Assembly: GCA_017512145.1 (NCBI GenBank)
Contig: JAFWHB010000003.1
Location: 7,629 to 71,628 of the forward strand
Length of the DNA: 64,000 nt
Direction: 5' to 3'
From: Mogibacterium sp.
Lineage (GTDB): Bacteria; Bacillota; Clostridia; Peptostreptococcales; Anaerovoracaceae
Every line of letters starts with the position of its first letter. Position 1 is the first letter of the stretch. Below are positions 10,464 to 64,000 of the stretch, piece by piece. Under the pieces are notes generated by a model. The model was not told where the DNA came from and searched no databases. It worked only from the letters and a program-made list of their open reading frames with translations. A program made the position numbers and the translations under genes.

Positions 10464-12185
10464 ATGGATATTAAGAAATCAAGAGGATTATACGCGGTCT
10501 GCTCAGTTCTGGCGCCGCTCTCAGGAGCCGCAATAGGGGCACTGGCAGCTATCCTGAGCTGCGTATCGAATATGGCGGATAAGGCACATCTGACCAAGGA
10601 AGAATTCGAGGACCTGTCCAATTATGGCTGGGTAGCAGAATTTACCAGCAGCAGAGCAAGAGCTGAGCTCTGTGAATATCTGCTCTGGGGTATAATAGCG
10701 GCCGGAATCGTCTTCGCTGTTACCTTCATAATGCTGAATATTATGACAGGGAATACAGACCGGAATGAAGACGGATCAATCAGACTGAACTGGTTTGACA
10801 GGATCTGGAGCGAGGTTCATATCGCCGGCGGTATATTTGCTGCTACAATGGCAATCATTCAGGCAGGATATATTCACAGCATTGCAAGGAGTCTTGACTG
10901 GTTCGCAGCATACAAACCAGTCAATCCGAACAATTATGAATTAGGCATACCGAATCAGAGTGCTTTCATCATGCTCTTCATAGGCATGGCAGCGATGATC
11001 TGGGCTGCAGTAGCCTGCTGGCTCTCGCTGGTCAAGAAGATCAAGGCCAGGGAACTTCTTAATAAGTCCTTACTTGGCAAACTCATTATCACAGTATGGA
11101 CCGGAATCAGAAAGGCATGGGATACTCTCCGTGCCGGCTACAGAAGCTTCTCAGTACCAGAGGATGCAGATCAGCGGGCAGCGTTCAAGCTTATTATCAA
11201 GTATTGCCTGATAGCAGCAGCCCTGATATGGGGACCGATAATCTGCAACACGGTATTCTTCGGATTCTCTAGTGGGTTCCTGATCCTACCTGCGTTCATA
11301 TCCACGATACTTGCGGCATATATTATCATTCGCAGGATCGGCAAGATTGCTGAGATAAGGGCAGGGGTCATATCTGTTAAGTCGGGAGACCTTGCTCACC
11401 GTATCACGGTCAACTGCGATATGAATGGTCCTAAGACTGAACTCGACAAGCTCGCATCAGACATCAATCACATCTCTGAGGCAACAGACATAGCTGTTCA
11501 GAATGAGATCAAGAATCAGAGACTCAAGACGGACCTTATCAGCAATGTCTCTCATGATCTCAAGACACCGCTTACCTCGATGATAAGCTATCTGGATATT
11601 CTTGAAAGAGAGGGCCTTGACAGTCCTGATGCAGAAGAACATCTTGCGATAGTCCGCGAGAAGACCGACAGACTGAAGACTTTGACCGAGGAACTCTTCG
11701 AAGCAGCCAAAGCATCAAGCGGCAATATCCCTTGTGAGATCGAAGACATCGACATTGCTGCTCTTGTCGATCAGTCTCTGGCAGAACTTTCAGACAGACT
11801 GTCAGCAAGGAATCTGATCATCAGGAAGAGCATCAGGACAGAGCAAACTATGGTCAGGGCTGACGGCAAGCTGCTGTACAGAGTGTTCGAGAACCTCCTG
11901 AGCAATATCAGCAAGTATGCTCTCGAAGGCAGCCGTGTATATATTGATGTCAATGACATACCTGGCTCAGAGAGAAAGCTCATAGAATTCAAGAATATCT
12001 CGAAGGATGAGCTCAACATCAGTGCAGATGAACTCATGGAGAGGTTCACAAGAGGCGATTCTTCAAGGAATACTGAAGGCAGCGGACTCGGACTTGCGAT
12101 AGCCAGAGACCTCACAACTCTGATGGGCGGTAACTTTGATATCAGCATCGACGGAGACATGTTCAAGGCATCGGTCAGGATCTGA
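10464..12185 (+). CDS. Sensor histidine kinase with multi-TM N-terminal sensor
   Basis: H-box SHDLKTPLTSM, N/G boxes (GSGLGLAI), several N-terminal TM segments. Adjacent to the response regulator. Confidence 0.9.
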   Translation: MDIKKSRGLYAVCSVLAPLSGAAIGALAAILSCVSNMADKAHLTKEEFEDLSNYGWVAEFTSSRARAELCEYLLWGIIAAGIVFAVTFIMLNIMTGNTDRNEDGSIRLNWFDRIWSEVHIAGGIFAATMAIIQAGYIHSIARSLDWFAAYKPVNPNNYELGIPNQSAFIMLFIGMAAMIWAAVACWLSLVKKIKARELLNKSLLGKLIITVWTGIRKAWDTLRAGYRSFSVPEDADQRAAFKLIIKYCLIAAALIWGPIICNTVFFGFSSGFLILPAFISTILAAYIIIRRIGKIAEIRAGVISVKSGDLAHRITVNCDMNGPKTELDKLASDINHISEATDIAVQNEIKNQRLKTDLISNVSHDLKTPLTSMISYLDILEREGLDSPDAEEHLAIVREKTDRLKTLTEELFEAAKASSGNIPCEIEDIDIAALVDQSLAELSDRLSARNLIIRKSIRTEQTMVRADGKLLYRVFENLLSNISKYALEGSRVYIDVNDIPGSERKLIEFKNISKDELNISADELMERFTRGDSSRNTEGSGLGLAIARDLTTLMGGNFDISIDGDMFKASVRI

Positions 12186-28829: not shown

Positions 28830-29015
28830 ATAGGTGGTGATCGGGCGGGCATGTTCGTGGTTGAAAGTCCAGGCCAGATACGGGCAAAGGGATCCACGTA
28901 AGCAGTCAGCAGGAAGCGGCTGTGATCATGGCGTATCTTAGAAGTAAGTCCTCCGGAAACCGGGTTAAGGCAAGTGTGGGGTCAAAGACCAGGTCGAGTG
29001 CCCCGCCGGATCGGC
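28830..29015 (+). ncRNA. GC-rich structured RNA candidate; its position after comFC and before hpf matches the raiA-motif RNA class
   Basis: Long-range closing helix 28839-28849 / 29002-29012. Nested helices cgtgg/ccacg (28856-60/28894-98), cagc/gctg and ccgg-aaa-ccgg. No plausible ORF or RBS. Flanking DNA is AT-rich. Confidence 0.5.
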
Positions 29016-54027: not shown

Positions 54028-54155
54028 AATATTTATAGATTATTTCGATTCACTCTAACAATGTATTCAAAAAACACATAAAAAGCATTGAAATAATTAC
54101 CCAATATTGATATTCTCTTAACAAGAAATAGGGGCCAATTAAATAAAGGGCTTAT

Positions 54156-54305
54156 TCCTTCCGAGAGAGAATCATCCGGTGCATTTATTTAGATGCTATC
54201 TCGTAATCACATGGCATGACACTGAAGGATGATCGCTGAAGAGGCAAATTCCTGTTAACTGGCACTGACTGGAACGAAACTTTCAAGCAAAAGGACCGGA
54301 ACGGA
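54156..54305 (+). promoter_or_regulatory. Glycine-riboswitch-like aptamer (apparently a single aptamer with a long P2 insertion)
   Basis: CGAGAGAG (compare GGAGAG), CGCTGAAGAGGCAA (compare CACCGAAGGGGCAA) and CAAGCAAAAGGACCGG (compare CAGGCAAAAGGAC). P1 is tccttccg / cggaacgga and P2 is atcatcc / ggatgat. Confidence 0.55.
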
Positions 54306-54340
54306 TACCTATTTCTGGATCTTTAATAACATTGAAACAG

Positions 54341-54386: not shown

Positions 54387-54398
54387 TTGGAGAACGAG

Positions 54399-54794
54399 AT
54401 GAAGTACTACATCTTGACAAATAATCCACTGGCAGCTGAAGAGTTCGGAAAGACTCACGACGTGCGTACGGTAGATGGGAAGCTCATAGATGTTCTGATT
54501 GCTGCAAGAGATCAGATCAGCCGGGGCGCAGTTCTGCTGAATCACCCGCTGTATGGCAGTGTCAAACCGAATGAGACCCCGTTCAGATCTCTTCTGCTGC
54601 AGCAAGGTAAGTCCGCGTCCGGAGATGCTCCGGCAATGCCTGATCCTGAATCAGTGAGACTTATCGGGAACGCAGTCAGTGCGTTCGAAAAATTCACAGG
54701 TAAGAAGGAGGTTGCCGATCGCCGGCTTCTCGATGACTTTATGGTCGTAGACTTGAGTCTTCTGAGGAGTGCTGTCGAGTCAGCAGACCGGTAA
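54399..54794 (+). CDS. grdX: GrdX-like protein (glycine/sarcosine/betaine reductase operon leader gene)
   Basis: About 130 aa; MKYYILTNNP start and position upstream of grdE. Recognised from memory of GrdX proteins, so moderate confidence. Confidence 0.6.
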   Translation: MKYYILTNNPLAAEEFGKTHDVRTVDGKLIDVLIAARDQISRGAVLLNHPLYGSVKPNETPFRSLLLQQGKSASGDAPAMPDPESVRLIGNAVSAFEKFTGKKEVADRRLLDDFMVVDLSLLRSAVESADR

Positions 54795-54901: not shown

Positions 54902-56182
54902 ATGAGATTGGAAATCGGAAAAATCAACATCACTGATATCCGGTTTGCGGAAGAATCCAAGATCGAGAAGGGTATCCTCTATGTCAATCCTGAGGACCTG
55001 AAGCCTGTAGTGCTCGAAGATGAAAAGCTTGTAGACGTCGTTTTCGACATTGCAAAGCCGGGTGAGTCAGTAAGAATCACTCCGGTCAAGGATGTCATCG
55101 AGCCTAGGGTCAAGGTTGAAGGAAAGGGTGGAATTTTTCCTGGAGTGATAGCCAAGGTAGACACTGTAGGCTCCGGCAAGACACTTGCTCTCAAGGGCAT
55201 GGCTGTAGTAACGGCAGGTAGAATTGTCGGATTCCAGGAAGGAATCATCGATATGACCGGAGTCGGTGCACAGTACACACCATTCTCCAAGACTCTGAAT
55301 CTCTGCATGGTCTGCGAACCTGCACCAGACCTCAAACAGCATGATTATGAGAAAGCTGTCAGAATGGCCGGCTTCAGAGTCGCAACAAAGATCGGAGAAC
55401 TCGCAAGAGGAATCGAGCCTGACGAAACATGTGTATATGAGACACTGGGAATCAAAGAAGGTATCGAAAAGTATCCGGATCTGCCTAGAGTAGGATATGT
55501 ATCGATGCTTCAGACACAGGGACTTCTGCACGATACATATGTATATGGTGTTGATGCCAAGAAGATCATCCCTACAATCATCAGCCCGACTGAAGCTATG
55601 GACGGAGCAATCGTATCCGGCAACTGCGTATCCGCATGCGACAAGAATCCGACCTATATCCACCAGAACAACCCTGTTATCGAAGACCTCTTTGCACAGC
55701 ACGGCAAGACTCTGAATTTTGTCTGCCAGATCATTACCAATGAGAACGTATATCTGGCTGATAAAGAGAGATCTTCAAATATGACAGCTAAGCTCTGCCG
55801 TATGCTCGATCTCGATGGCGTTATCGTAACTCAGGAAGGCTTCGGTAACCCGGATACAGACCTGATCATGAACTGCAAGAAGATCGAAGCTGAAGGTGTC
55901 AAGACTGTAATCGTTACAGACGAATATGCCGGAAGAGACGGAAAGTCGCAGTCTCTCGCAGATGCAGACGCAGCAGCTGATGCAGTAGTAACAGGTGGAA
56001 ATGCCAATGAAGTAGTTATCCTGCCTAAACTTGACAAGGTCATCGGAATGATGGATTACGTCAACAAGATCGCAGGTGCAAGCGAAGACACACTCAGAGA
56101 AGACGGAACACTCGAGGTAGAGCTCCAGGTAATCACAGGCGCTACCAATGAGATGGGATTCGGTCTGCTGAGCGCAAGATAA
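54902..56182 (+). CDS. grdE: Glycine (or sarcosine) reductase component B proprotein, GrdE type (alpha/beta subunits)
   Basis: 426 aa. Asn241-Cys242 (SGN|CVSAC) sits at the position of the known self-cleavage/pyruvoyl-forming site. AAGGAGG RBS. Confidence 0.8.
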   Translation: MRLEIGKINITDIRFAEESKIEKGILYVNPEDLKPVVLEDEKLVDVVFDIAKPGESVRITPVKDVIEPRVKVEGKGGIFPGVIAKVDTVGSGKTLALKGMAVVTAGRIVGFQEGIIDMTGVGAQYTPFSKTLNLCMVCEPAPDLKQHDYEKAVRMAGFRVATKIGELARGIEPDETCVYETLGIKEGIEKYPDLPRVGYVSMLQTQGLLHDTYVYGVDAKKIIPTIISPTEAMDGAIVSGNCVSACDKNPTYIHQNNPVIEDLFAQHGKTLNFVCQIITNENVYLADKERSSNMTAKLCRMLDLDGVIVTQEGFGNPDTDLIMNCKKIEAEGVKTVIVTDEYAGRDGKSQSLADADAAADAVVTGGNANEVVILPKLDKVIGMMDYVNKIAGASEDTLREDGTLEVELQVITGATNEMGFGLLSAR

Positions 56183-56206: not shown

Positions 56207-57520
56207 ATGGCTAAGATCAAAGTGGTTCACTATATCAACCAGTTCTTCGCCGGAATCGGCGGAGAAGAAAAAGCCGACATCCCTGCTGAACTCCACAAGG
56301 CTGAGGTCATAGGACCGGGAATGGCGTTCAACACCGGATTTGGTGATGAAGCAGAGATCATCGCTACTATCATCTGCGGTGATTCATACTTCAATGAAAA
56401 CATAGATGCTGTCAAGGCAGAGATCCTCGGATGGGTCAAAGAACTTGCACCAGACCTGTTCATCGCAGGACCTGCATTCAATGCAGGCCGTTACGGAGTT
56501 GCATGCGGTACGATCGCAGCAGCAGTTCAGGAGGAGCTGGGCATCAAGTCAATGACAGGAATGTATGTTGAGAACCCTGGTGCAGATATGTACAAGGACA
56601 AGACATACATCCTCGAGACCAAGGACAGTGCTGCAGGTATGAGAGCTGCAGTCAAGAAGATGACAGCATTCGCTCTCAAGTATGCAAAGGGCGAGAAAAT
56701 CGGCGCATCCTGCGAAGAGGGTTACATGAATCAGGGCATAAGAGTCAACTTCTTCGAGAAGGAAAGAGGCTCTAAGAGAGCGGTAGATATGCTGATCGCA
56801 AAGCTTAACGATAAGCCGTTCGTAACAGAATATCCAATGCCTGACTTTGACAGAGTTGAACCAAATCCTGCAGTCAAGGATATGGCACACGCAACGATAG
56901 CTCTCGTAACTTCCGGTGGTATCGTACCTAAGGGCAACCCTGACCACATCGAAAGCTCAAGTGCTTCTAAGTTCGGCGAATACAGCCTTGCAGGCGTAAC
57001 CGATCTCGATGCTGACACATTTGAAACAGCTCACGGCGGATATGACCCTGTATATGCGAATGAAGATGCAGACAGAGTTCTGCCTGTGGATATCATGCGC
57101 GAACTCGAGAAGGAAGGCGTCATCGGCAAACTTCACGAGAAATACTATGCAACTGTAGGTAACGGCACAGCTGTTGCAAGTGCCAAGAAGTACGGTGCAG
57201 AAATAGGCAAGAGACTGGTGGCTGACGGAGTAGACGCAGTTATACTCACCTCCACGTGAGGAACCTGCACTCGTTGCGGCGCAACGATGGTTAAAGAGCT
57301 CGAAAGAGCCGGACTCCCTGTTGTTCACGTATGCACAGTAACACCTATTTCTATGACAGTAGGCGCTAACAGGATCGTACCTGCTATCGCTATCCCGCAT
57401 CCTCTGGGCAATCCTGCTCTTGATAAGGATGAGGAGAAGAAGCTTCGCCGCAAACTCGTAGTGAAGGCTCTCGGAGCACTTCAGACCGAGGTTGACGGAC
57501 AGAAGGTTTTTGAAGATTAG
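56207..57520 (+). CDS. grdB: Selenoprotein B (component B gamma subunit), GrdB type, with in-frame UGA = Sec at codon 351
   Basis: ORFs 56207-57259 and 57287-57520 are in the same frame. The junction reads LTST-U-GTCTRCGATMV, the UxxCxxC motif. A SECIS-like hairpin follows. Confidence 0.85.
57262..57292 (+). promoter_or_regulatory. SECIS-like hairpin 3 nt downstream of the grdB UGA
   Basis: AACC tgcac TCGTTGC ggc GCAACGA t GGTT. 38 of 40 nt are identical to the equivalent region of the second module. Confidence 0.7.
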
Positions 57521-57588: not shown

Positions 57589-58146
57589 ATGCCAGAAATA
57601 ACAGTTTGGACCAAACAGAATGCAGCGGTCATTGACCAGCTTGAGACAGCGGGAAGATTTATAGCGGATGAACGGTATATACACATGGATCTAGAAGACA
57701 CGGCCGACATCATGCTGTTTATCTACCGCTGGCTCTCTGATCACATGCCTGCTGTTTCTGTAAGGCCTCCGGATGTCTTATTTCCGGTTTGGGTCTCCTT
57801 TAACAAGGAGGCAACTATGAGACCTGAGAACGGGTTTGCTGTTCTCGAGCTCAGAGTCCGGGAGGAGCTTGTGACTCCGGTCAACATTGAGAAGTGGACA
57901 CGGATAACCAACTACTCATACATAGCGCTCGATGAAGAGGATGCAGCTGAGCATAACAGCCTTCTCAGGAACATGGGAATAAACAATGCTCAGGCTGTAA
58001 TGACAGATTTCTATCCGGAAATAAAGAGAAAGATAATCGCAAGCTGGGACAGGCTTTTTGACGATAACGTAAAGGCAGGAAACAGCAATGCTTACGGACT
58101 GATGTGGGAGGTCAGAAGAGAATGGGTACAGAATGTGACCGTATAA
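57589..58146 (+). CDS. Uncharacterised protein, paralog 1 of 3 (size and shape reminiscent of DUF3841; not verifiable here)
   Basis: Shares FPVW, FYPEIKRKIIASW and WEVRREW blocks with the two neighbouring ORFs. Lies 68 nt downstream of grdB with no terminator. Confidence 0.6.
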   Translation: MPEITVWTKQNAAVIDQLETAGRFIADERYIHMDLEDTADIMLFIYRWLSDHMPAVSVRPPDVLFPVWVSFNKEATMRPENGFAVLELRVREELVTPVNIEKWTRITNYSYIALDEEDAAEHNSLLRNMGINNAQAVMTDFYPEIKRKIIASWDRLFDDNVKAGNSNAYGLMWEVRREWVQNVTV

Positions 58147-58718
58147 TACTCTATTCACCTCAGGCTGAACCTGTATGGGATGCTGTCATGAATGACGGTA
58201 CAGCATACTCCCGGAGAGAATACATATATAAGAAATACGAAGAAAGTGCAGGAATATTCCTCACTGCTTATGACGCATATATTCGTGAAGCAGACAAGAT
58301 AGTACCGAGGCCTGAGCCATGGGCATATCCGTACTGGGCATTTGCTTCAATGCAGCAGGTCGATCTGTCGGGCGGCGGCAGGGTCATGAAGCTGTCTGTT
58401 CCGGTGGATGAAACGGTTTTGTTCGATCAGTACGACTGGTACAAAGTTCTCCGGCTTTCATACATCGGAAGCAATGCCAAGGATGAAGCGGAATTCAGGC
58501 GTGAACTCGAGAGGAGAGGTATCAAGGATCCCTCTGAGGCGGTACTCAGACCTTTTTATCCGGATATTAAAAGGAAGATAACAGATAGCTGGAAGAAAAT
58601 CTTCCGGTATGACGAAGAAATAAAGAAGGCCATCGTGAGCGGCAGAAATCCTGATGCCGGAGGAGTAAGAGCAATTCAGGCAGGACTCTGGTGCATCAAA
58701 AAAGAGTGGCTTATATAA
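58122..58718 (+). CDS. Uncharacterised protein, paralog 2 of 3
   Basis: YPYW, FYPDIKRKITDSW and WCIKKEWLI blocks. GGGAGG RBS 10 nt upstream of the ATG at 58122. Overlaps paralog 1 by 25 nt. Confidence 0.6.
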   Translation: MGTECDRIILYSPQAEPVWDAVMNDGTAYSRREYIYKKYEESAGIFLTAYDAYIREADKIVPRPEPWAYPYWAFASMQQVDLSGGGRVMKLSVPVDETVLFDQYDWYKVLRLSYIGSNAKDEAEFRRELERRGIKDPSEAVLRPFYPDIKRKITDSWKKIFRYDEEIKKAIVSGRNPDAGGVRAIQAGLWCIKKEWLI

Positions 58719-58725
58719 GCCACTC
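58704..58725. repeat. Perfect 22-bp palindrome GAGTGGCTTATATAAGCCACTC at the convergent gene ends
   Basis: Read on either strand it encodes E-W-L-I-stop. The two convergent paralogs overlap by 8 nt inside it. Confidence 0.95.
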
Positions 58726-59256
58726 TGCATGAAGCTCCCAGCAAAGGCCAACGATCCTGGACGGATCCTGAGGCCTGACAGTATATATTCCTTCCCAGCT
58801 TCTGAGAACTTTCTGCTTAAGAAGAGGGTAGAAGTTGCCGGCACTGCCGTTTATAAGAGAAGCCGGATTCGATATCCCGTATCTTGCAAGCTCGGCTTCG
58901 TGGGCGAGCTCATCTGATTCATCGGCCGGATAGTATATGTGATTGATCATATGCTCCCAGACTTCATCGTTGGCGAGTATGTAACTGCCGGCGGGAATAT
59001 CCAGTCTGAGGAAAACAGAATCGGACGACTCGGGAATAGCATCTGTACCCTCAGGACTCAGCCATACAGGATACAGAAGACCGTCCGGAATGCTGATCCT
59101 GGACTTCGCCATTGAGGTCAGAAGACGGTACAGAGACGCATAGTGATCAGTGATAGTTGTGTATTTCTGACGGACGAAGTCTTCGCGGACTGTGTACACA
59201 CCCTTAGTGCGAAGATCCTCGAGGACCTGAGGATCCTGCCTGGTTACAAAAATCAT
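58711..59256 (-). CDS. Uncharacterised protein, paralog 3 of 3
   Basis: YPVW, FYPLLKQKVLRSW and WELHAEWLI blocks. Its ATG overlaps the TGA of the upstream TetR gene (ATGA). Confidence 0.6.
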   Translation of the reverse strand: MIFVTRQDPQVLEDLRTKGVYTVREDFVRQKYTTITDHYASLYRLLTSMAKSRISIPDGLLYPVWLSPEGTDAIPESSDSVFLRLDIPAGSYILANDEVWEHMINHIYYPADESDELAHEAELARYGISNPASLINGSAGNFYPLLKQKVLRSWEGIYTVRPQDPSRIVGLCWELHAEWLI

Positions 59257-59924
59257 ATTAATGCCACCTTCCTGCATGCATCGAGCATTCGTGCAGTCTG
59301 AGACTCCGGAGTGACACCGCGGTCATTGCCCAGTAGCTGGGTCAGAAGGGCATAGAAGAATGCAACAGTCATGTCATTGCTAAGAATGATGTCGTTATCA
59401 GGTACACGGCCTTCAAGAAGAGGCACGAGCAGCATAAGGTTTCTGTCCTGCAGGCTTGTTGCTCTGAACATAGCTTCAAGAAAGACGTCAGATGAGGTGT
59501 CTCTTTCAGGAGGAAACAGGTCTAAATATTCCTTGAGGACGGAAGGAAGATCCTCACTGTGACGACTGAAGAAAAGAATGTTGAATTCATCAGGATTTGA
59601 AAAAGCATGCTTGCAGAAAATCTCCCACGACAGCATGTATATGTCCGCATCGTAGGATTCATCAGTGTCAGGATCCATATGACTGGATGAATTGACCATG
59701 TCGTTTGTATATTCCTGAAGCGCATGCACGCACGCAAACAGAACCACTTCATCTATGTCTCTGAAATAACGATAGATGAGAGCGCTGTTCATACCGACAC
59801 GGCTTCCGAGAGATCTTGCCGATACGGACGGGATGCCGGATTCATGAATCATTTCCATTGCACACTGAATCAGAGATATTTTGTTGTTTCTTATAGTCTC
59901 TGCGGACATAGATGGTCTGCCCAT
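59253..59924 (-). CDS. grdR: TetR-family transcriptional regulator (GrdR-like, divergent from grdI)
   Basis: N-terminal TetR HTH (SVSARSLGSRVGMNSALIYRYF). Divergent arrangement with the betaine-type module. Confidence 0.75.
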   Translation of the reverse strand: MGRPSMSAETIRNNKISLIQCAMEMIHESGIPSVSARSLGSRVGMNSALIYRYFRDIDEVVLFACVHALQEYTNDMVNSSSHMDPDTDESYDADIYMLSWEIFCKHAFSNPDEFNILFFSRHSEDLPSVLKEYLDLFPPERDTSSDVFLEAMFRATSLQDRNLMLLVPLLEGRVPDNDIILSNDMTVAFFYALLTQLLGNDRGVTPESQTARMLDACRKVALI

Positions 59925-60032: not shown

Positions 60033-60061
60033 TTTACAGTTCAATAGTTTTTTTCTATAAT
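60033..60061 (+). promoter_or_regulatory. Sigma-70-type promoter for the grdI operon
   Basis: TTTACA, 17-nt spacer, TATAAT. Confidence 0.5.
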
Positions 60062-60186: not shown

Positions 60187-61515
60187 ATGAAACTCAAGAT
60201 CGGCAACATCCAGGTCAAGGATGTAGTTCTTGGCGCTCAGGACAGCTTTGCTGATGGCATTCTTACCATCAATAAGCAGGCAGCAATCGACTATCTTATG
60301 GACTTGGACGATCATATTACAAGTCTCGATATAGTTATCGCTCACCCTGGTGACGACACAAGAATCGTTCCTGTAATTGAGACAATCGAACCAAGAATGA
60401 GAGTTGACGGAAGAACTCTCTTCCCGGGAGTAACTGACGAAGTAGTACCTGCAGGTGACGGAGAACTCAAGGCTCTTAAGGGCTGCTGTGTAACAGTAGT
60501 TGGCGGAACATGGGGTTCCTTCGGTGACGGAGTCATCGACATGGGCGGTGAAGGTGCAAAGCACACTTACTGGTCCAAGCTCATCAACATCTGCCTCGTA
60601 GGTGAGACTGACGAAGAGTTCGAACGTTATGAACAGCAGAAGATGAACCATGCTCTCAGATGGGCAGGCCACAGATTTGCTGAGTATCTCGGAAAAATCG
60701 CTAAATCTGTAGCTGCAGAAGACTTCGAAGAGTATGAATTTGAACCTGTAGCAGACAGAGCTAAGAAGAACAATGGTCTTCCTAATGTAGCCATCGTACT
60801 GCAGCCACAGTCACAGATGGAGGCACTTGGATACAACGACCTCTGGTACGGATGGGACCTGAACAAGTTCCTGCCTACATTCGTAAGCCCTACAGAAGTT
60901 CTCGATGGCGCTATGATCTCCGGATCATTCATGCCGGCATCCTCAAAGTGGTCAACATATGAGATGCAGAACTTCCCGACAATCAAGGAACTCTTCGCAG
61001 AAGACGGCAAGAGCCTGAACTTCGTAGGAGTCATCCTCTCGATGCTCAACGTAGCACTCGATCAGAAGGAAAGAGCTGCAATCATGGTAAGAAGCATGGC
61101 ACTCAACCTCGGCGTTGACTACGCTATCGTAACCGAAGAAGGATACGGCAACCCGGATGCAGACTATGTACGCTGCCAGGTCATCCTCGAAGATGCAGGC
61201 ATCCCTGTAGTAGGTATTTCCAACGAGTGTACAGGCCGTGACGGATTCTCACAGCCGCTTGTAACACTCGATTCAAAGATGAATGCACTTGTTTCCTCAG
61301 GAAATGTATCTCAGCTTTCTGATCTTCCTGCTTGCAAGACAGTTATCGGATGTCTTGAAGCTATGAACAGAGACGGCATGTCCGGCAGCTGGGGCTATGA
61401 TGAGAAGCTCGGTAAGTCTGCAAGAGACGACGGCTCAATCATCATGGAAGACAACAACTGGTTCTGCGGAGACCACATCAGCGGATTCTCAGTTAAGACA
61501 ATGAAGGAATTTTAG
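60187..61515 (+). CDS. grdI: Component B large subunit, GrdI type (betaine reductase-like; lacks the self-cleavage Cys)
   Basis: Paralog of grdE. The aligned site reads SGSFMPAS instead of SGNCVSAC. Lies between a TetR regulator and a BCCT transporter. Confidence 0.7.
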   Translation: MKLKIGNIQVKDVVLGAQDSFADGILTINKQAAIDYLMDLDDHITSLDIVIAHPGDDTRIVPVIETIEPRMRVDGRTLFPGVTDEVVPAGDGELKALKGCCVTVVGGTWGSFGDGVIDMGGEGAKHTYWSKLINICLVGETDEEFERYEQQKMNHALRWAGHRFAEYLGKIAKSVAAEDFEEYEFEPVADRAKKNNGLPNVAIVLQPQSQMEALGYNDLWYGWDLNKFLPTFVSPTEVLDGAMISGSFMPASSKWSTYEMQNFPTIKELFAEDGKSLNFVGVILSMLNVALDQKERAAIMVRSMALNLGVDYAIVTEEGYGNPDADYVRCQVILEDAGIPVVGISNECTGRDGFSQPLVTLDSKMNALVSSGNVSQLSDLPACKTVIGCLEAMNRDGMSGSWGYDEKLGKSARDDGSIIMEDNNWFCGDHISGFSVKTMKEF

Positions 61516-61533: not shown

Positions 61534-62850
61534 ATGAAGAAAGTAATTTGTTACGTCAACCAGTTCTTCGGCGGAATCGGCGGAGAAGACAAGGCTGACC
61601 AGGAACCATACATCGTTGAAGGCGTTGTAGGTCCTACAATGGCGATCAATGCAGCCCTCAAGGATGCAGAGGTTACTCATACTGTAGTATGCGGTGACAA
61701 CTTCATGGGATCCAATACTGAAGAAGCTCTTTCGAGAATCATGGGATTCCTCGAAGGCAAAGAGATGGATCTCTTCATCGCAGGTCCTGCTTTCCAGGCC
61801 GGACGTTATGGCGTTGCATGCGGTAATGTCTGCAAAGCAGTTAAGGAAAAGTTCGGAGTTCCTGTACTCACATCAATGAATGGTGAGAACCCGGGAGCTG
61901 ACATGTTCAAGAAAGACGTAATCATCTTCAAGGGCGGCACAGGCGCTGTAAAGATGAGACAGGACGTCAAAGTTCTGACCAACTTCGCTAATAAGCTTCT
62001 TGCCGGCGAGCCTAACCTCGGATGCGAAGCAGAAGGTTATTTCGAAAGAGGATGCAGACACGAAGTATTCCTTGAGGACATCAGAGAGAACACCGCTGCT
62101 TACAGAGGCATTCAGATGCTCAAGAAGAAGATGGCAGGCGAGCCTTATCAGACAGAGCTTATTATCCCTGAGAAGGATCTCGTTCCTATCGCACCTGCAA
62201 TTGAACTTAAGGACGCTGTAGTTGCTCTCGTAACTACATCCGGCTGCGTACCTGTAGAGAACCCTGACAGAATTCAGTCAGCATCCGCTACAAGATGGGG
62301 CAGATACAGCATCAAGGATATGGACAGACTCGAAGCTGGCGTATTCAAGACAATCCATGCTGGTTATGACCCTGCAGCAGGTAATGCAGACCCTAACGTA
62401 CTCGTTCCGCTCGATGCTGTAAGAGCATATGAGAAGGAAGGCAAGTTCGCAAGACTGCATGACTACTTCTACACAACAGTAGGTACCGGTACAACAGAAG
62501 CTGAAGCTACAAGAATGGCAGAGGAAATGGTTCCTTATCTCCGCGAAGATGGGGTTAACGCTATTATCCTCGGCTCAACCTGAGGAACCTGTACTCGTTG
62601 CGGCGCAACGATGGTTAAGGCTCTTGAGAGAGCAGGCTTCAACGTTGTACATATGTGCAACCTGATCCCAGTATCGATGACAGTCGGAGCTAACAGAATC
62701 GTTCCTACTATCTCGATCCCATATCCTCTCGGCGATCCTAATACACCGAAGGAAGAACAGTGGAAGCTGCGTTATCACAGAGTAGGTGTTGCTCTTGATG
62801 CAATCGCCACTGACGTTACAGAACAGACTGTTTTCAAGGTAAGAATCTAG
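61534..62850 (+). CDS. grdH: Selenoprotein B paralog, GrdH type, with in-frame UGA = Sec at codon 350
   Basis: ORFs 61534-62583 and 62611-62850 are in the same frame. The junction reads ILGST-U-GTCTRCGATMV. Confidence 0.8.
62586..62616 (+). promoter_or_regulatory. SECIS-like hairpin downstream of the grdH UGA
   Basis: Same hairpin as at 57262-57292 with a single C/T difference. Confidence 0.7.
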
Positions 62851-62863
62851 TAGGTGACATGCC

Positions 62864-64000
62864 ATGAAAGGGACAAAGAGCAACATGGTGTTCATTATCT
62901 CGGTCGTACTGACTCTGGCAATTTGCCTGTGGGGAATCATTCTCCCGGACAGTTTCGGAGTCGCAGCAACCGGCAGCATGAACTTCCTGACCACTAATTT
63001 TGGCTGGTTCTACGCAGTTGCAATGACAGCTTTCGTGGCGTTCTGTATCTGGATAGGGTTCTTCAGCAAATACAAAAATGTTCGTTTGGGACCTGATGAT
63101 TCGACGCCTGACTACAGCGACCTGTCATGGTTCGCAATGCTGTTTTCTGCCGGCATGGGCGTAGGTTTGGTGTTCTGGGGTGTAGCAGAACCTCTGAACT
63201 ACTACCTCGCTCCTATAGGGGGGCTGGAATCAGCTTCAGACGAAGCAATGAGAATGGCTTTCACAAAGTCATTCCTGCACTGGGGCATTCACCCGTGGGC
63301 GAATTACTCAGTTCTCGCTCTTGCACTTGCATACATGCAGTTCCGCAAGGGCAAACCGGCTCTGGTGAGCTCGGTATTCATTCCTCTGATCGGAGAGAAG
63401 AGAACGAACGGATGGATCGGTAAAGTTATCGACATCCTCGCGATCTTCGCAACAGCAGGAGGAGTGGCAACTTCACTGGGACTCGGTGTCCTTCAGATCA
63501 ATTCAGGAATGAATTTCCTCGGAGGAATACCTGAGAACCACATGGTACAGCTCATCCTGATCGTTGTACTTGGTGTTATCTACACCATCACAGCGGTCAT
63601 GGGAGTAGAAAAAGGTATCAGCAAAGTCTGTGACCTCAACATAAGAATCGCGATAGGCGTTATGCTCCTGCTGTTCATCATCGGTCCGACAGTTCCGATT
63701 CTGAACAACCTGACAGAAGGACTCGGAGCTTATATCAGCGGCATCATTTCCAACACCTTTGAAGTAGGTGCTTTCGGAGACGCTGACTGGTACAAGTCCT
63801 GGACAACCTTCTACTGGGCATGGTGGATCGCCTGGGCACCATTCACTGGTTCCTTTATCGCGAGAATATCGAGAGGCAGGACAATAGGACAGTTCGTCAA
63901 GGGAGTAATGTTCATCCCGGCCGGATTCTCAATAATCTGGTTTGCGATCTACGGAACTCTCGGAATGAAGTGTGATCTGTCTGTAATTGAAGAGGCAGTT
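62864..64000 (+). CDS. BCCT-family (betaine/carnitine/choline) transporter, 3' end outside window
   Basis: Hand translation from the ATG at 62864 stays open to the window end. It contains SWFAMLFSAGMGVGLVFWGVAEP, a BCCT hallmark. Absent from the ORF track because no stop lies in the window. Confidence 0.85.
   Translation, partial: MKGTKSNMVFIISVVLTLAICLWGIILPDSFGVAATGSMNFLTTNFGWFYAVAMTAFVAFCIWIGFFSKYKNVRLGPDDSTPDYSDLSWFAMLFSAGMGVGLVFWGVAEPLNYYLAPIGGLESASDEAMRMAFTKSFLHWGIHPWANYSVLALALAYMQFRKGKPALVSSVFIPLIGEKRTNGWIGKVIDILAIFATAGGVATSLGLGVLQINSGMNFLGGIPENHMVQLILIVVLGVIYTITAVMGVEKGISKVCDLNIRIAIGVMLLLFIIGPTVPILNNLTEGLGAYISGIISNTFEVGAFGDADWYKSWTTFYWAWWIAWAPFTGSFIARISRGRTIGQFVKGVMFIPAGFSIIWFAIYGTLGMKCDLSVIEEAV

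Follow-up and report, generated by a model that had tools for sequence, protein, structure and literature searches.

A DUF3841 gene trio between glycine and betaine reductase modules in Mogibacterium, and the recurrent linkage of its family to grd clusters

The window analysed here is the whole 64,000-nucleotide stretch of Mogibacterium sp. contig JAFWHB010000003.1 (assembly GCA_017512145.1, positions 7,629 to 71,628 of the forward strand). It carries three related genes, designated P1, P2 and P3, which lie between a glycine-type reductase module (grdX-E-B) and a betaine-type reductase module (grdR/grdI-H), and the question they raise is what such genes contribute to Stickland-type reductase systems. 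A preliminary description, made from the letters of this DNA, had proposed a locally triplicated accessory or regulatory element tied to component B. We found that the three proteins belong to the Pfam family DUF3841 (PF12952), that the unit of this family is an A-type gene followed by a B-type gene, and that such pairs recur at grd clusters. The reading that we favour, with a probability of about 0.5, is that a putatively active A subunit and a degenerate B subunit would form a heteromer of weakly ADP-ribosyltransferase (ART)-like fold, which would modify or sense a component of the Grd pathway.

The DUF3841 trio and its A/B pair architecture

The three genes were delimited as follows, along with a palindrome at the convergent ends of P2 and P3.

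57589–58146, plus strand: P1, 185 residues; DUF3841 A-type, P1 subtype, with K9, S70, H122 and E174.
58122–58718, plus strand: P2, 198 residues from its ATG; DUF3841 B-type, with P, F, F and C at the A-type polar positions.
59256–58711, minus strand: P3, 181 residues; DUF3841 A-type, P3 subtype, with R, S, H and E at the four A-type positions.
58703–58726, both strands: hairpin, a perfect 10-bp palindrome GAGTGGCTTATATAAGCCACTC that spans the 8-nt convergent overlap of the P2 and P3 stops.

A Pfam search assigned P1, P2 and P3 to PF12952 with E-values of 8.5e-56, 7e-52 and 1e-40 (188.9, 176.1 and 139.8 bits against a gathering cut-off of 27), with alignments covering positions 1–177 or 4–177 of the 178-position model, so that the earlier suspicion of a DUF3841-type family became a full-length assignment. 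Pairwise tblastn comparisons gave identities of 26.4%, 27.2% and 22.3% with E-values of 3e-18 to 2e-10, and the alignment of the three proteins contained 26 invariant columns, including the shared motif blocks PxW, FYPxxKxK...SW and W...EW by which the preliminary description had related the three reading frames; the comparison indicates homology far above chance. Besides P1–P3, no further DUF3841 copy was found inside the window. P2 was 100% identical to the NCBI entry 'DUF3841 domain-containing protein [Mogibacterium sp.]', and the nearest loci came from rumen Anaerovoracaceae/Mogibacterium metagenome-assembled genomes (MAGs). NCBIfam, which has no model for the family, returned no meaningful match for P1–P3, and no paper mentioning DUF3841 or PF12952 was found in the literature searched. 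PF12952 is an uncharacterised family to which neither a function nor a solved structure is assigned, and its description contains no A/B subtypes, pairing or grd linkage.

The gene junctions proved to be as previously described. P1 starts 68 nt after the grdB stop codon, and a terminator scan of this gap returned no terminator-like site. The ATG of P2 is located 25 nt ahead of the P1 stop and is preceded by GGGAGG; the reading frame of P2 opens further upstream, at GTG 58104. P3 lies on the minus strand within the TetR operon divergent from grdI, and its ATG shares the sequence ATGA with the TGA stop of the upstream TetR gene (59924–59253, minus strand), an overlap that is kept in relatives. 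The overlapping start and stop codons, together with the missing terminator-like site between grdB and P1, are consistent with the operon coupling suggested earlier. The palindrome at 58703–58726 encodes the conserved C-terminal E-W-L-I-stop on either strand. Its folding energy is –17.0 kcal/mol when read on the plus strand; on the minus strand, where a T-run follows, it is –20.6 kcal/mol. It resembles a terminator and is a candidate for that of the grdR-P3 transcript on the minus strand. The 8-nt P2/P3 overlap was also conserved in two relatives (loci L004 and L007).

Subsequently, the DUF3841 domains of all fetched loci were sorted by their best match to P1, P2 or P3. Wherever a pair was present in the loci examined, its A-type gene (P1- or P3-like) came first and its B-type gene (P2-like) second, on the same strand, and P1-type pairs usually overlapped by 25 nt, as P1 and P2 do in the window. 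A natural A–B fusion of a P1-like half and a P2-like half was also present (376 residues; 3 members on several contigs). The window accordingly contains a single complete pair, of the P1-type, and in addition a P3-type A gene that stands as an orphan; P3-type genes in other lineages have their own B partner, and a Coprococcus contig (L028) carries A3-B-A1-B in a row. P1, P2 and P3 are anciently diverged subtypes, with P1 and P3 representing two A-type subfamilies and P2 the B-type. The local triplication put forward in the preliminary description was not borne out, since an overall identity of only 22–29% among P1–P3 and the separate orthologues that each subtype has elsewhere rule out a recent event of this kind; the unit is the A→B pair.

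Residues that distinguish the types were compared across 102 non-redundant domains (25 P1-type, 32 P3-type and 45 B-type; P1 numbering). Q10, Y46, W68, W103, N108, Y111, D118, FYP141–143, S152-W153, R155, W173 and E178-W179 are common to A and B, and the following four positions differ.

Position 9: A-type, K or R in 24 of 25 P1-type and 32 of 32 P3-type domains (all R in the P3-type); B-type, A, P or S.
Position 70: A-type, S in 25 of 25 P1-type and 18 of 32 P3-type domains; B-type, F or Y.
Position 122: A-type, H in 21 of 25 P1-type and 31 of 32 P3-type domains; B-type, F in 42 of 45.
Position 174: A-type, E in 25 of 25 P1-type and 30 of 32 P3-type domains; B-type, E in 13, C in 11 and R in 8 of 45.

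This pattern would fit an active subunit with a degenerate paralogue. The A subunit would keep polar, probably catalytic or ligand-binding residues (K/R9, S70, H122 and E174), the B subunit would be a paralogue that has lost them, and the translationally coupled A→B pair would yield an A/B heteromer.

Fusions to other domains were found for both A-type subfamilies. A GNAT acetyltransferase is fused to a P1-type DUF3841 domain (L135, 8001–9739; P0128 cluster; 393 residues, 52 cluster members), and the B-type gene behind it shows the 25-nt overlap that is usual for such pairs. A LysR-type helix-turn-helix (HTH) is fused to a P3-type domain (L133, 8001–10009, and L134; 17 cluster members, 86 contigs) and is followed by a further A–B pair, with an EamA transporter and a beta-lactamase-fold protein flanking the three genes. 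The layout of a LysR-HTH-A3 fusion plus an A/B pair parallels the GrdR-coupled P3 plus P1–P2 of the window and suggests a regulatory flavour for the family.

These arrangements also bear on a second reading, which we consider unlikely, according to which DUF3841 A/B, or P3 alone, would act not as an enzyme but as a co-regulator that senses a ligand. This ligand would be betaine or a different metabolite of the pathway, possibly bound through invariant Trp/Tyr residues, and GrdR or other HTH regulators of grdI-H/BCCT would then be modulated. The ATGA coupling of P3 to the TetR regulator would agree with this, as would the TetR or GntR gene found beside the pair in most grd-linked loci and the LysR-HTH fusion, which puts DUF3841 in the usual place of an effector-binding domain. 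The residues invariant in A and B are, moreover, mostly aromatic (Y46, W68, W103, Y111, Y142, W153, W173 and W179), and an aromatic cage formed by them would be a speculative proposal. TetR and GntR proteins, however, have ligand-binding domains of their own, many pairs have no adjacent regulator, and the regulator in grd loci also adjoins grdI, so its adjacency to the pair may be indirect. The K/R, S, H and E whose conservation is specific to A and which are lost in B look more like an active site than a shared pocket.

Linkage to grd clusters and its limits

Within the lineage of the window, the order grdX-E-B, P1-P2, P3<-TetR and grdI-H-BCCT-grdA-trxB-trxA-grdC was kept in Anaerovoracaceae/Mogibacterium MAGs and metagenome contigs and persisted down to about 57–60% P1 identity (P1 range 57–84%), in line with the earlier view that these genes are not passengers. 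Across loci L011–L026, identities were 93–100% for GrdI and GrdH, compared with 60–84% for P1, 67–79% for P2, 67–93% for P3 and 57–86% for TetR. The DUF3841 proteins and TetR thus diverge much faster than GrdI/GrdH, which fits an accessory or regulatory role. Where the betaine module has been lost (e.g. L009 and L019), P1–P2 remained intact between grdB and grdA. In such relatives, a 66-residue P3 remnant (L009 and L010) and a short BCCT fragment (L010 and L019) were located between P2 and grdA, at 11144–11341 in L009, 3309–3506 and 3495–3737 in L010, and 11174–11323 in L019. We take these remnants as deletion scars, which makes the two-module arrangement ancestral in the lineage.

Outside the lineage, linkage was assessed in two samples. 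The genome sample anchored on DUF3841 was retrieved with sequence patterns taken from P1–P3 themselves and is biased towards their relatives; a homologue search with a diverse profile again returned mostly P1-type proteins and is not an unbiased sample of the family. The GrdH-anchored scan, in which 80 metagenome loci were compared with the DUF3841 hidden Markov model, is free of this bias.

In the DUF3841-anchored sample, 7 of 14 loci with P3-type genes outside the lineage were grd-linked, namely those of Catonella morbi ATCC 51271, a second Catonella, Aequitasia, an Oscillospiraceae MAG, Oscillibacter and two further Clostridia. In C. morbi ATCC 51271, a reversed TetR gene precedes A, B, grdI, grdH, BCCT, trxB, trxA, grdA, grdC and grdD, all in the forward direction, so that the betaine operon opens with the A–B pair. 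In Catonella, Aequitasia, Oscillospiraceae and Enterococcus alike, pairs have grdI-grdH, BCCT or a regulator as their neighbour. On megaplasmids of Enterococcus gilvus and E. raffinosus, grdCD-grdI-grdH-BCCT is followed by the A–B pair; in E. gilvus, the annotation places a GntR regulator after BCCT and ahead of the pair. Plasmid p1_Er676 of E. raffinosus (L052) carries trxB-trxA-grdA-grdC-grdD-grdI-grdH-BCCT, and the locus fetched from E. gilvus pCR1A (L051) shows the same order but reaches back only to grdC. A selenoprotein betaine-reductase cluster on megaplasmids of about 0.9–1.1 Mb is unexpected for Lactobacillales.

In the GrdH-anchored scan, DUF3841 was present in 19 of the 80 loci, equivalent to 14 of 52 clusters at 95% GrdH identity. 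Among the clusters with at least 6 kb on both sides, hereafter termed well-flanked, it was found in 11 of 19, always within 5 kb of grdH. The grdH-linked DUF3841 genes occurred in at least eight gene orders, in Anaerovoracaceae, Lachnospiraceae, Oscillospiraceae and Enterococcus megaplasmids; they lay downstream of grdH or, in either orientation, of BCCT in some loci, and upstream of grdI or beyond TetR in others. The family comprises 792 clusters at 50% identity out of 1.8 billion representatives, and for one so rare, chance cannot explain this recurrent proximity to grdH. Among the neighbour families listed, the only recurrent ones apart from Grd were BCCT and TetR. DUF3841 is therefore co-localised with grd genes across unrelated lineages and gene orders. 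The preliminary description had made its proposal depend on an enrichment of homologues near grd genes in other genomes, and such enrichment is what the well-flanked clusters and the loci of Catonella, Aequitasia, Oscillospiraceae and Enterococcus display. The tie to component B in general, which it had also suggested, has to be amended, since the linkage is mainly to the betaine module, the BCCT transporter and the regulator, and is not obligatory. Assembly, maturation or regulation of component B, which it had offered as examples, are candidate roles among which the present data favour none.

One Oscillospiraceae locus (L036, 13826–14356) contained a third, very divergent DUF3841 copy with 25% identity to P3, located about 2.7 kb beyond the A–B pair and between the betaine and glycine modules. 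TusA-family sulfurtransferase genes were observed in two of the distant grd-linked loci of the set L036–L045 and may relate to sulfur/selenium handling.

Several results weigh against tying the module to the Grd pathway. Of the 19 well-flanked GrdH clusters, 8 have flanks in which no DUF3841 gene was found; these include a 14-member human-gut cluster of grdE-B-I-H type and hypersaline ones. Ten P1-type pairs, from other Firmicutes, Brachyspira and a Solirubrobacterales actinobacterial MAG, were located beside unrelated, non-recurrent genes, and the 123 neighbouring open reading frames of the 15 pair loci without grdI-H gave 170 Pfam families, none of which appeared more than three times. The DUF3841-anchored sample, in addition, carries the bias described above. 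Since the grd link is not universal, a strict dependence on Grd can be ruled out; the module is at most an accessory and able to work without Grd. A role as a core Grd subunit was ruled out by the many grdH clusters that have no DUF3841 nearby. Three metagenome contigs of the Ga01029xx, Ga0209414 and Ga0306868 series (L083, L093 and L100) carry two tandem TetR<-grdI-grdH modules with about 64–67% GrdH identity and no DUF3841 nearby.

These same results would suit a self-contained, general two-gene module with a Grd-independent target, captured repeatedly into grd/BCCT/regulator neighbourhoods. Its target might be a small molecule or a common cellular component, and it would have no specific Stickland role. 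One of the ten P1-type pairs is GNAT-fused; the neighbours of these pairs include AraC with a sugar ABC transporter, an SBF transporter, citrate-lyase ligase with GNAT, and BipA; and DUF3841 also occurs in MAGs of Brachyspira, Solirubrobacterales and Atopobiaceae. We nevertheless do not expect this account to hold. Rare as the family is, more than half of the well-flanked clusters have a member no further than 5 kb from grdH, and its retention through rearrangement into at least eight gene orders, in Clostridia and Bacilli, is hard to explain without selection for linkage. The pair that heads the betaine operon of Catonella and the P1–P2 pair that stays intact in the grd operon after loss of the betaine module speak against it as well.

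Fold and candidate function of the pair

AlphaFold2 models were computed for P1 and P3, with predicted local distance difference test (pLDDT) values of 91 and 90 and predicted template-modelling (pTM) scores of 0.83 and 0.81, respectively. In both models, the alpha/beta domain comprises six main strands together with an insertion of helices. In a Foldseek search of the Protein Data Bank (PDB) with the P1 model, about 20 of the top 24 chains belonged to the ART clan (E-values 0.04–0.8; template-modelling (TM) score about 0.3), among them DarT, TreTu, Tpt1/KptA, NatR-T, pertussis and cholera toxins, DUF952 (2o0q) and DUF2441 (2aua). For the P3 model, the top three matches were DarT, with E-values of 0.18–0.77. 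RES was a further ART-clan family in the lists for the two models. In a viral structure library, the best match (E 6.4e-5) carried no name, and several phage G proteins, PolyVal ART and DarT were also retrieved. Structure prediction and a Foldseek search had been proposed in the preliminary description; they returned confident models and lists led by the ART superfamily (Pfam clan CL0084) for both proteins, with none of these matches reaching significance.

Cholera- and pertussis-type ARTs carry an R-S-E triad on strands 1, 2 and 5, and H-Y-E is the alternative triad. In the DUF3841 models, which like the ART superfamily have six main strands, the A-type residues K/R9, S70 and E174 are positioned on or next to strands 1, 2 and 5 and may thereby follow the order of the R-S-E triad. 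DUF3841 differs from the superfamily in about 55 helical residues inserted between strands 4 and 5, in having no sequence or profile link to it, and in the Lys that often replaces Arg.

The resemblance has to be set against the following results. No PDB match by Foldseek was significant (E ≤ 0.001), the best E-values being 0.038 for P1 and 0.18 for P3, and TM scores for full-length ART matches were 0.25–0.36. No match to a Pfam family of the ART clan was obtained at E ≤ 10 among 81 diverse members, and sequence searches of the PDB, with phmmer from a single protein and with a profile, returned chance matches only and no relative. In the P1-type, position 9 is often taken by K instead of R, which is atypical for R-S-E ARTs, and there was no macrodomain or ADP-ribosylhydrolase among the best 25 neighbour families listed per scan. 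Likewise, DUF3841 is absent from the ART-clan families named in PMC7955679. On balance, the models make an ART-like fold of DUF3841 plausible, and ART-type chemistry of the predicted A subunit is a tentative proposal.

Given that the nearest structural neighbours are toxins (DarT, TreTu, RES and pertussis toxin; none significant), a toxin–antitoxin-like or conflict module was also considered, in which A would be an ART-like toxin and B its inactive paralogous antidote. The overlapping two-gene unit, the variable context of the P1-type, the pattern of a degenerate partner and the presence on Enterococcus megaplasmids would all fit. We regard it as very unlikely. The absence of any PADLOC match, of any meaningful PHROG match and of any homologue in 50,697 phage records argues against a toxin–antitoxin or defence module, and so does the plasmid distribution, as only four plasmid records matched, all of them megaplasmids or chromosome-sized replicons. 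The position of the pair is stably inherited across a family-level lineage, its linkage to one metabolic pathway is specific and recurrent, and GNAT and HTH fusions are atypical of such modules.

We return, then, to the accessory heteromer linked to the Grd pathway. Here, in a rumen Mogibacterium-like member of the Anaerovoracaceae, P1–P2 would be the tail of the glycine-riboswitch-controlled grdX-E-B operon, and P3 would be produced together with the TetR regulator GrdR. The module would constitute an accessory, non-core part of the Stickland glycine/betaine reductase regulon, with its strongest ties to the betaine branch. It would most likely be a small ART-like, nucleotide-binding or group-transferring enzyme or sensor, and would modify or sense a pathway component or metabolite rather than catalyse reduction. 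The closest parallels within the pathway are GrdX and GrdR. Like grdX, DUF3841 genes are small, non-catalytic members of grd operons that occur in only some clusters, and the shared ATGA would couple P3 translationally to GrdR. GrdX, however, matches NF038093 and PF28011 and not PF12952, and DUF3841, unlike it, is also found away from grd.

A more specific form of this reading can be drawn from the DraT/DraG system, in which an ART reversibly modifies nitrogenase, a metabolic enzyme. The likeness is conceptual only, in that a small ART-type enzyme would be encoded with, and act on, a redox enzyme complex; the difference is that no hydrolase partner was present among the neighbour families listed for DUF3841 loci. 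That DUF3841 should be a hitherto unrecognised and highly divergent ART branch whose active-A/pseudo-B heterodimer post-translationally controls or senses betaine/glycine reductase, as a DraT-like layer, is in our estimate rather improbable. If true, it would add a regulatory layer to the Stickland reductase and hence to gut and rumen trimethylamine production.

The relevance of the locus lies in the pathway. Microbes form trimethylamine (TMA), the precursor of trimethylamine N-oxide (TMAO), by three main routes, one of which is betaine reductase (GrdHI), and the betaine reductase pathway is a major energy route in amino-acid fermenters of the rumen and gut. More than half of the sampled well-flanked grdH clusters of gut/rumen type carry DUF3841 A/B genes, and if the pair regulates, maintains or feeds the reductase, it would fill a gap in the pathway and might offer a way to influence TMA formation. 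What is new here is the DUF3841 A/B pair as an accessory element of a known TMA-relevant pathway; the family itself was already in Pfam. The grdH paper of Rath et al. makes no mention of synteny or of the taxa described here. Cultured carriers exist, namely C. morbi ATCC 51271 and the genetically accessible E. raffinosus and E. gilvus. Apart from grd, the analysis provides a first structural and functional hypothesis for DUF3841, which comprises a fold resembling that of ARTs, a heteromer of active and degenerate subunits, and fusions to HTH and GNAT domains.

Flanking reductase modules

The features on either side of the trio were annotated as follows.

54152–54308, plus strand: glycine riboswitch aptamer preceding grdX (Rfam RF00504, 41.3 bits; gathering score 32).
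54387–54794, plus strand: grdX (NCBIfam NF038093 GrdX, E 1.2e-30).
54902–56182, plus strand: grdE-type component B alpha proprotein (best NCBIfam match GrdG/GrdE-like, E 7.5e-193).
56207–57520, plus strand: grdB, glycine reductase selenoprotein B; selenocysteine TGA at 57257–57259, selenocysteine insertion sequence (SECIS) at 57260–57297.
59253–59924, minus strand: TetR-family regulator, grdR-like, divergent from grdI (TetR_N, E 6.7e-07; weak BetI-like NCBIfam matches).
60033–60061, plus strand: promoter-like site upstream of grdI, TTTACA-17-TATAAT, with 11 of 12 consensus positions (consensus match only).
60187–61515, plus strand: grdI-type subunit of component B, betaine module (NCBIfam and Pfam Gly_reductase family).
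61534–62850, plus strand: grdH, betaine reductase selenoprotein B; selenocysteine TGA at 62581–62583, SECIS at 62584–62621.
62864–64000, plus strand: BCCT-family (betaine/carnitine/choline) transporter, partial, running off the end of the window.

The identification of a glycine-type module and a betaine-type module in the preliminary description was upheld by TIGR01917, NF040795 and NF038093, by the SECIS elements and by the riboswitch. Read through in full length, GrdB scored 695.9 bits with TIGR01917, against a cut-off of 602.2, and its SECIS_4 element scored 62.4 bits; an assignment of this first module as a sarcosine reductase was ruled out, as the GrdF cut-off was missed and the GrdB model passed. 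Relatives of grdE carry Pfam Gly_reductase. The read-through GrdH narrowly passed NF040795 (betaine_GrdH), with 776.4 bits against 775, and had a SECIS_4 element of 59.2 bits. GrdI and GrdE share 37% identity. Orthologues of the TetR gene of the window adjoin grdI-H in many loci, and the transporter is 92% identical over 379 residues to the Pfam-BCCT gene of locus L004. The riboswitch at 54152–54308 is likely the control point of the predicted grdX-E-B-P1-P2 transcript; given that no terminator-like site separates grdB from P1, both grdX-E-B and P1–P2 would be glycine-controlled. Distant from the trio, a raiA RNA motif was found at 28844–29007 of the window (Rfam RF03072, 124.7 bits).

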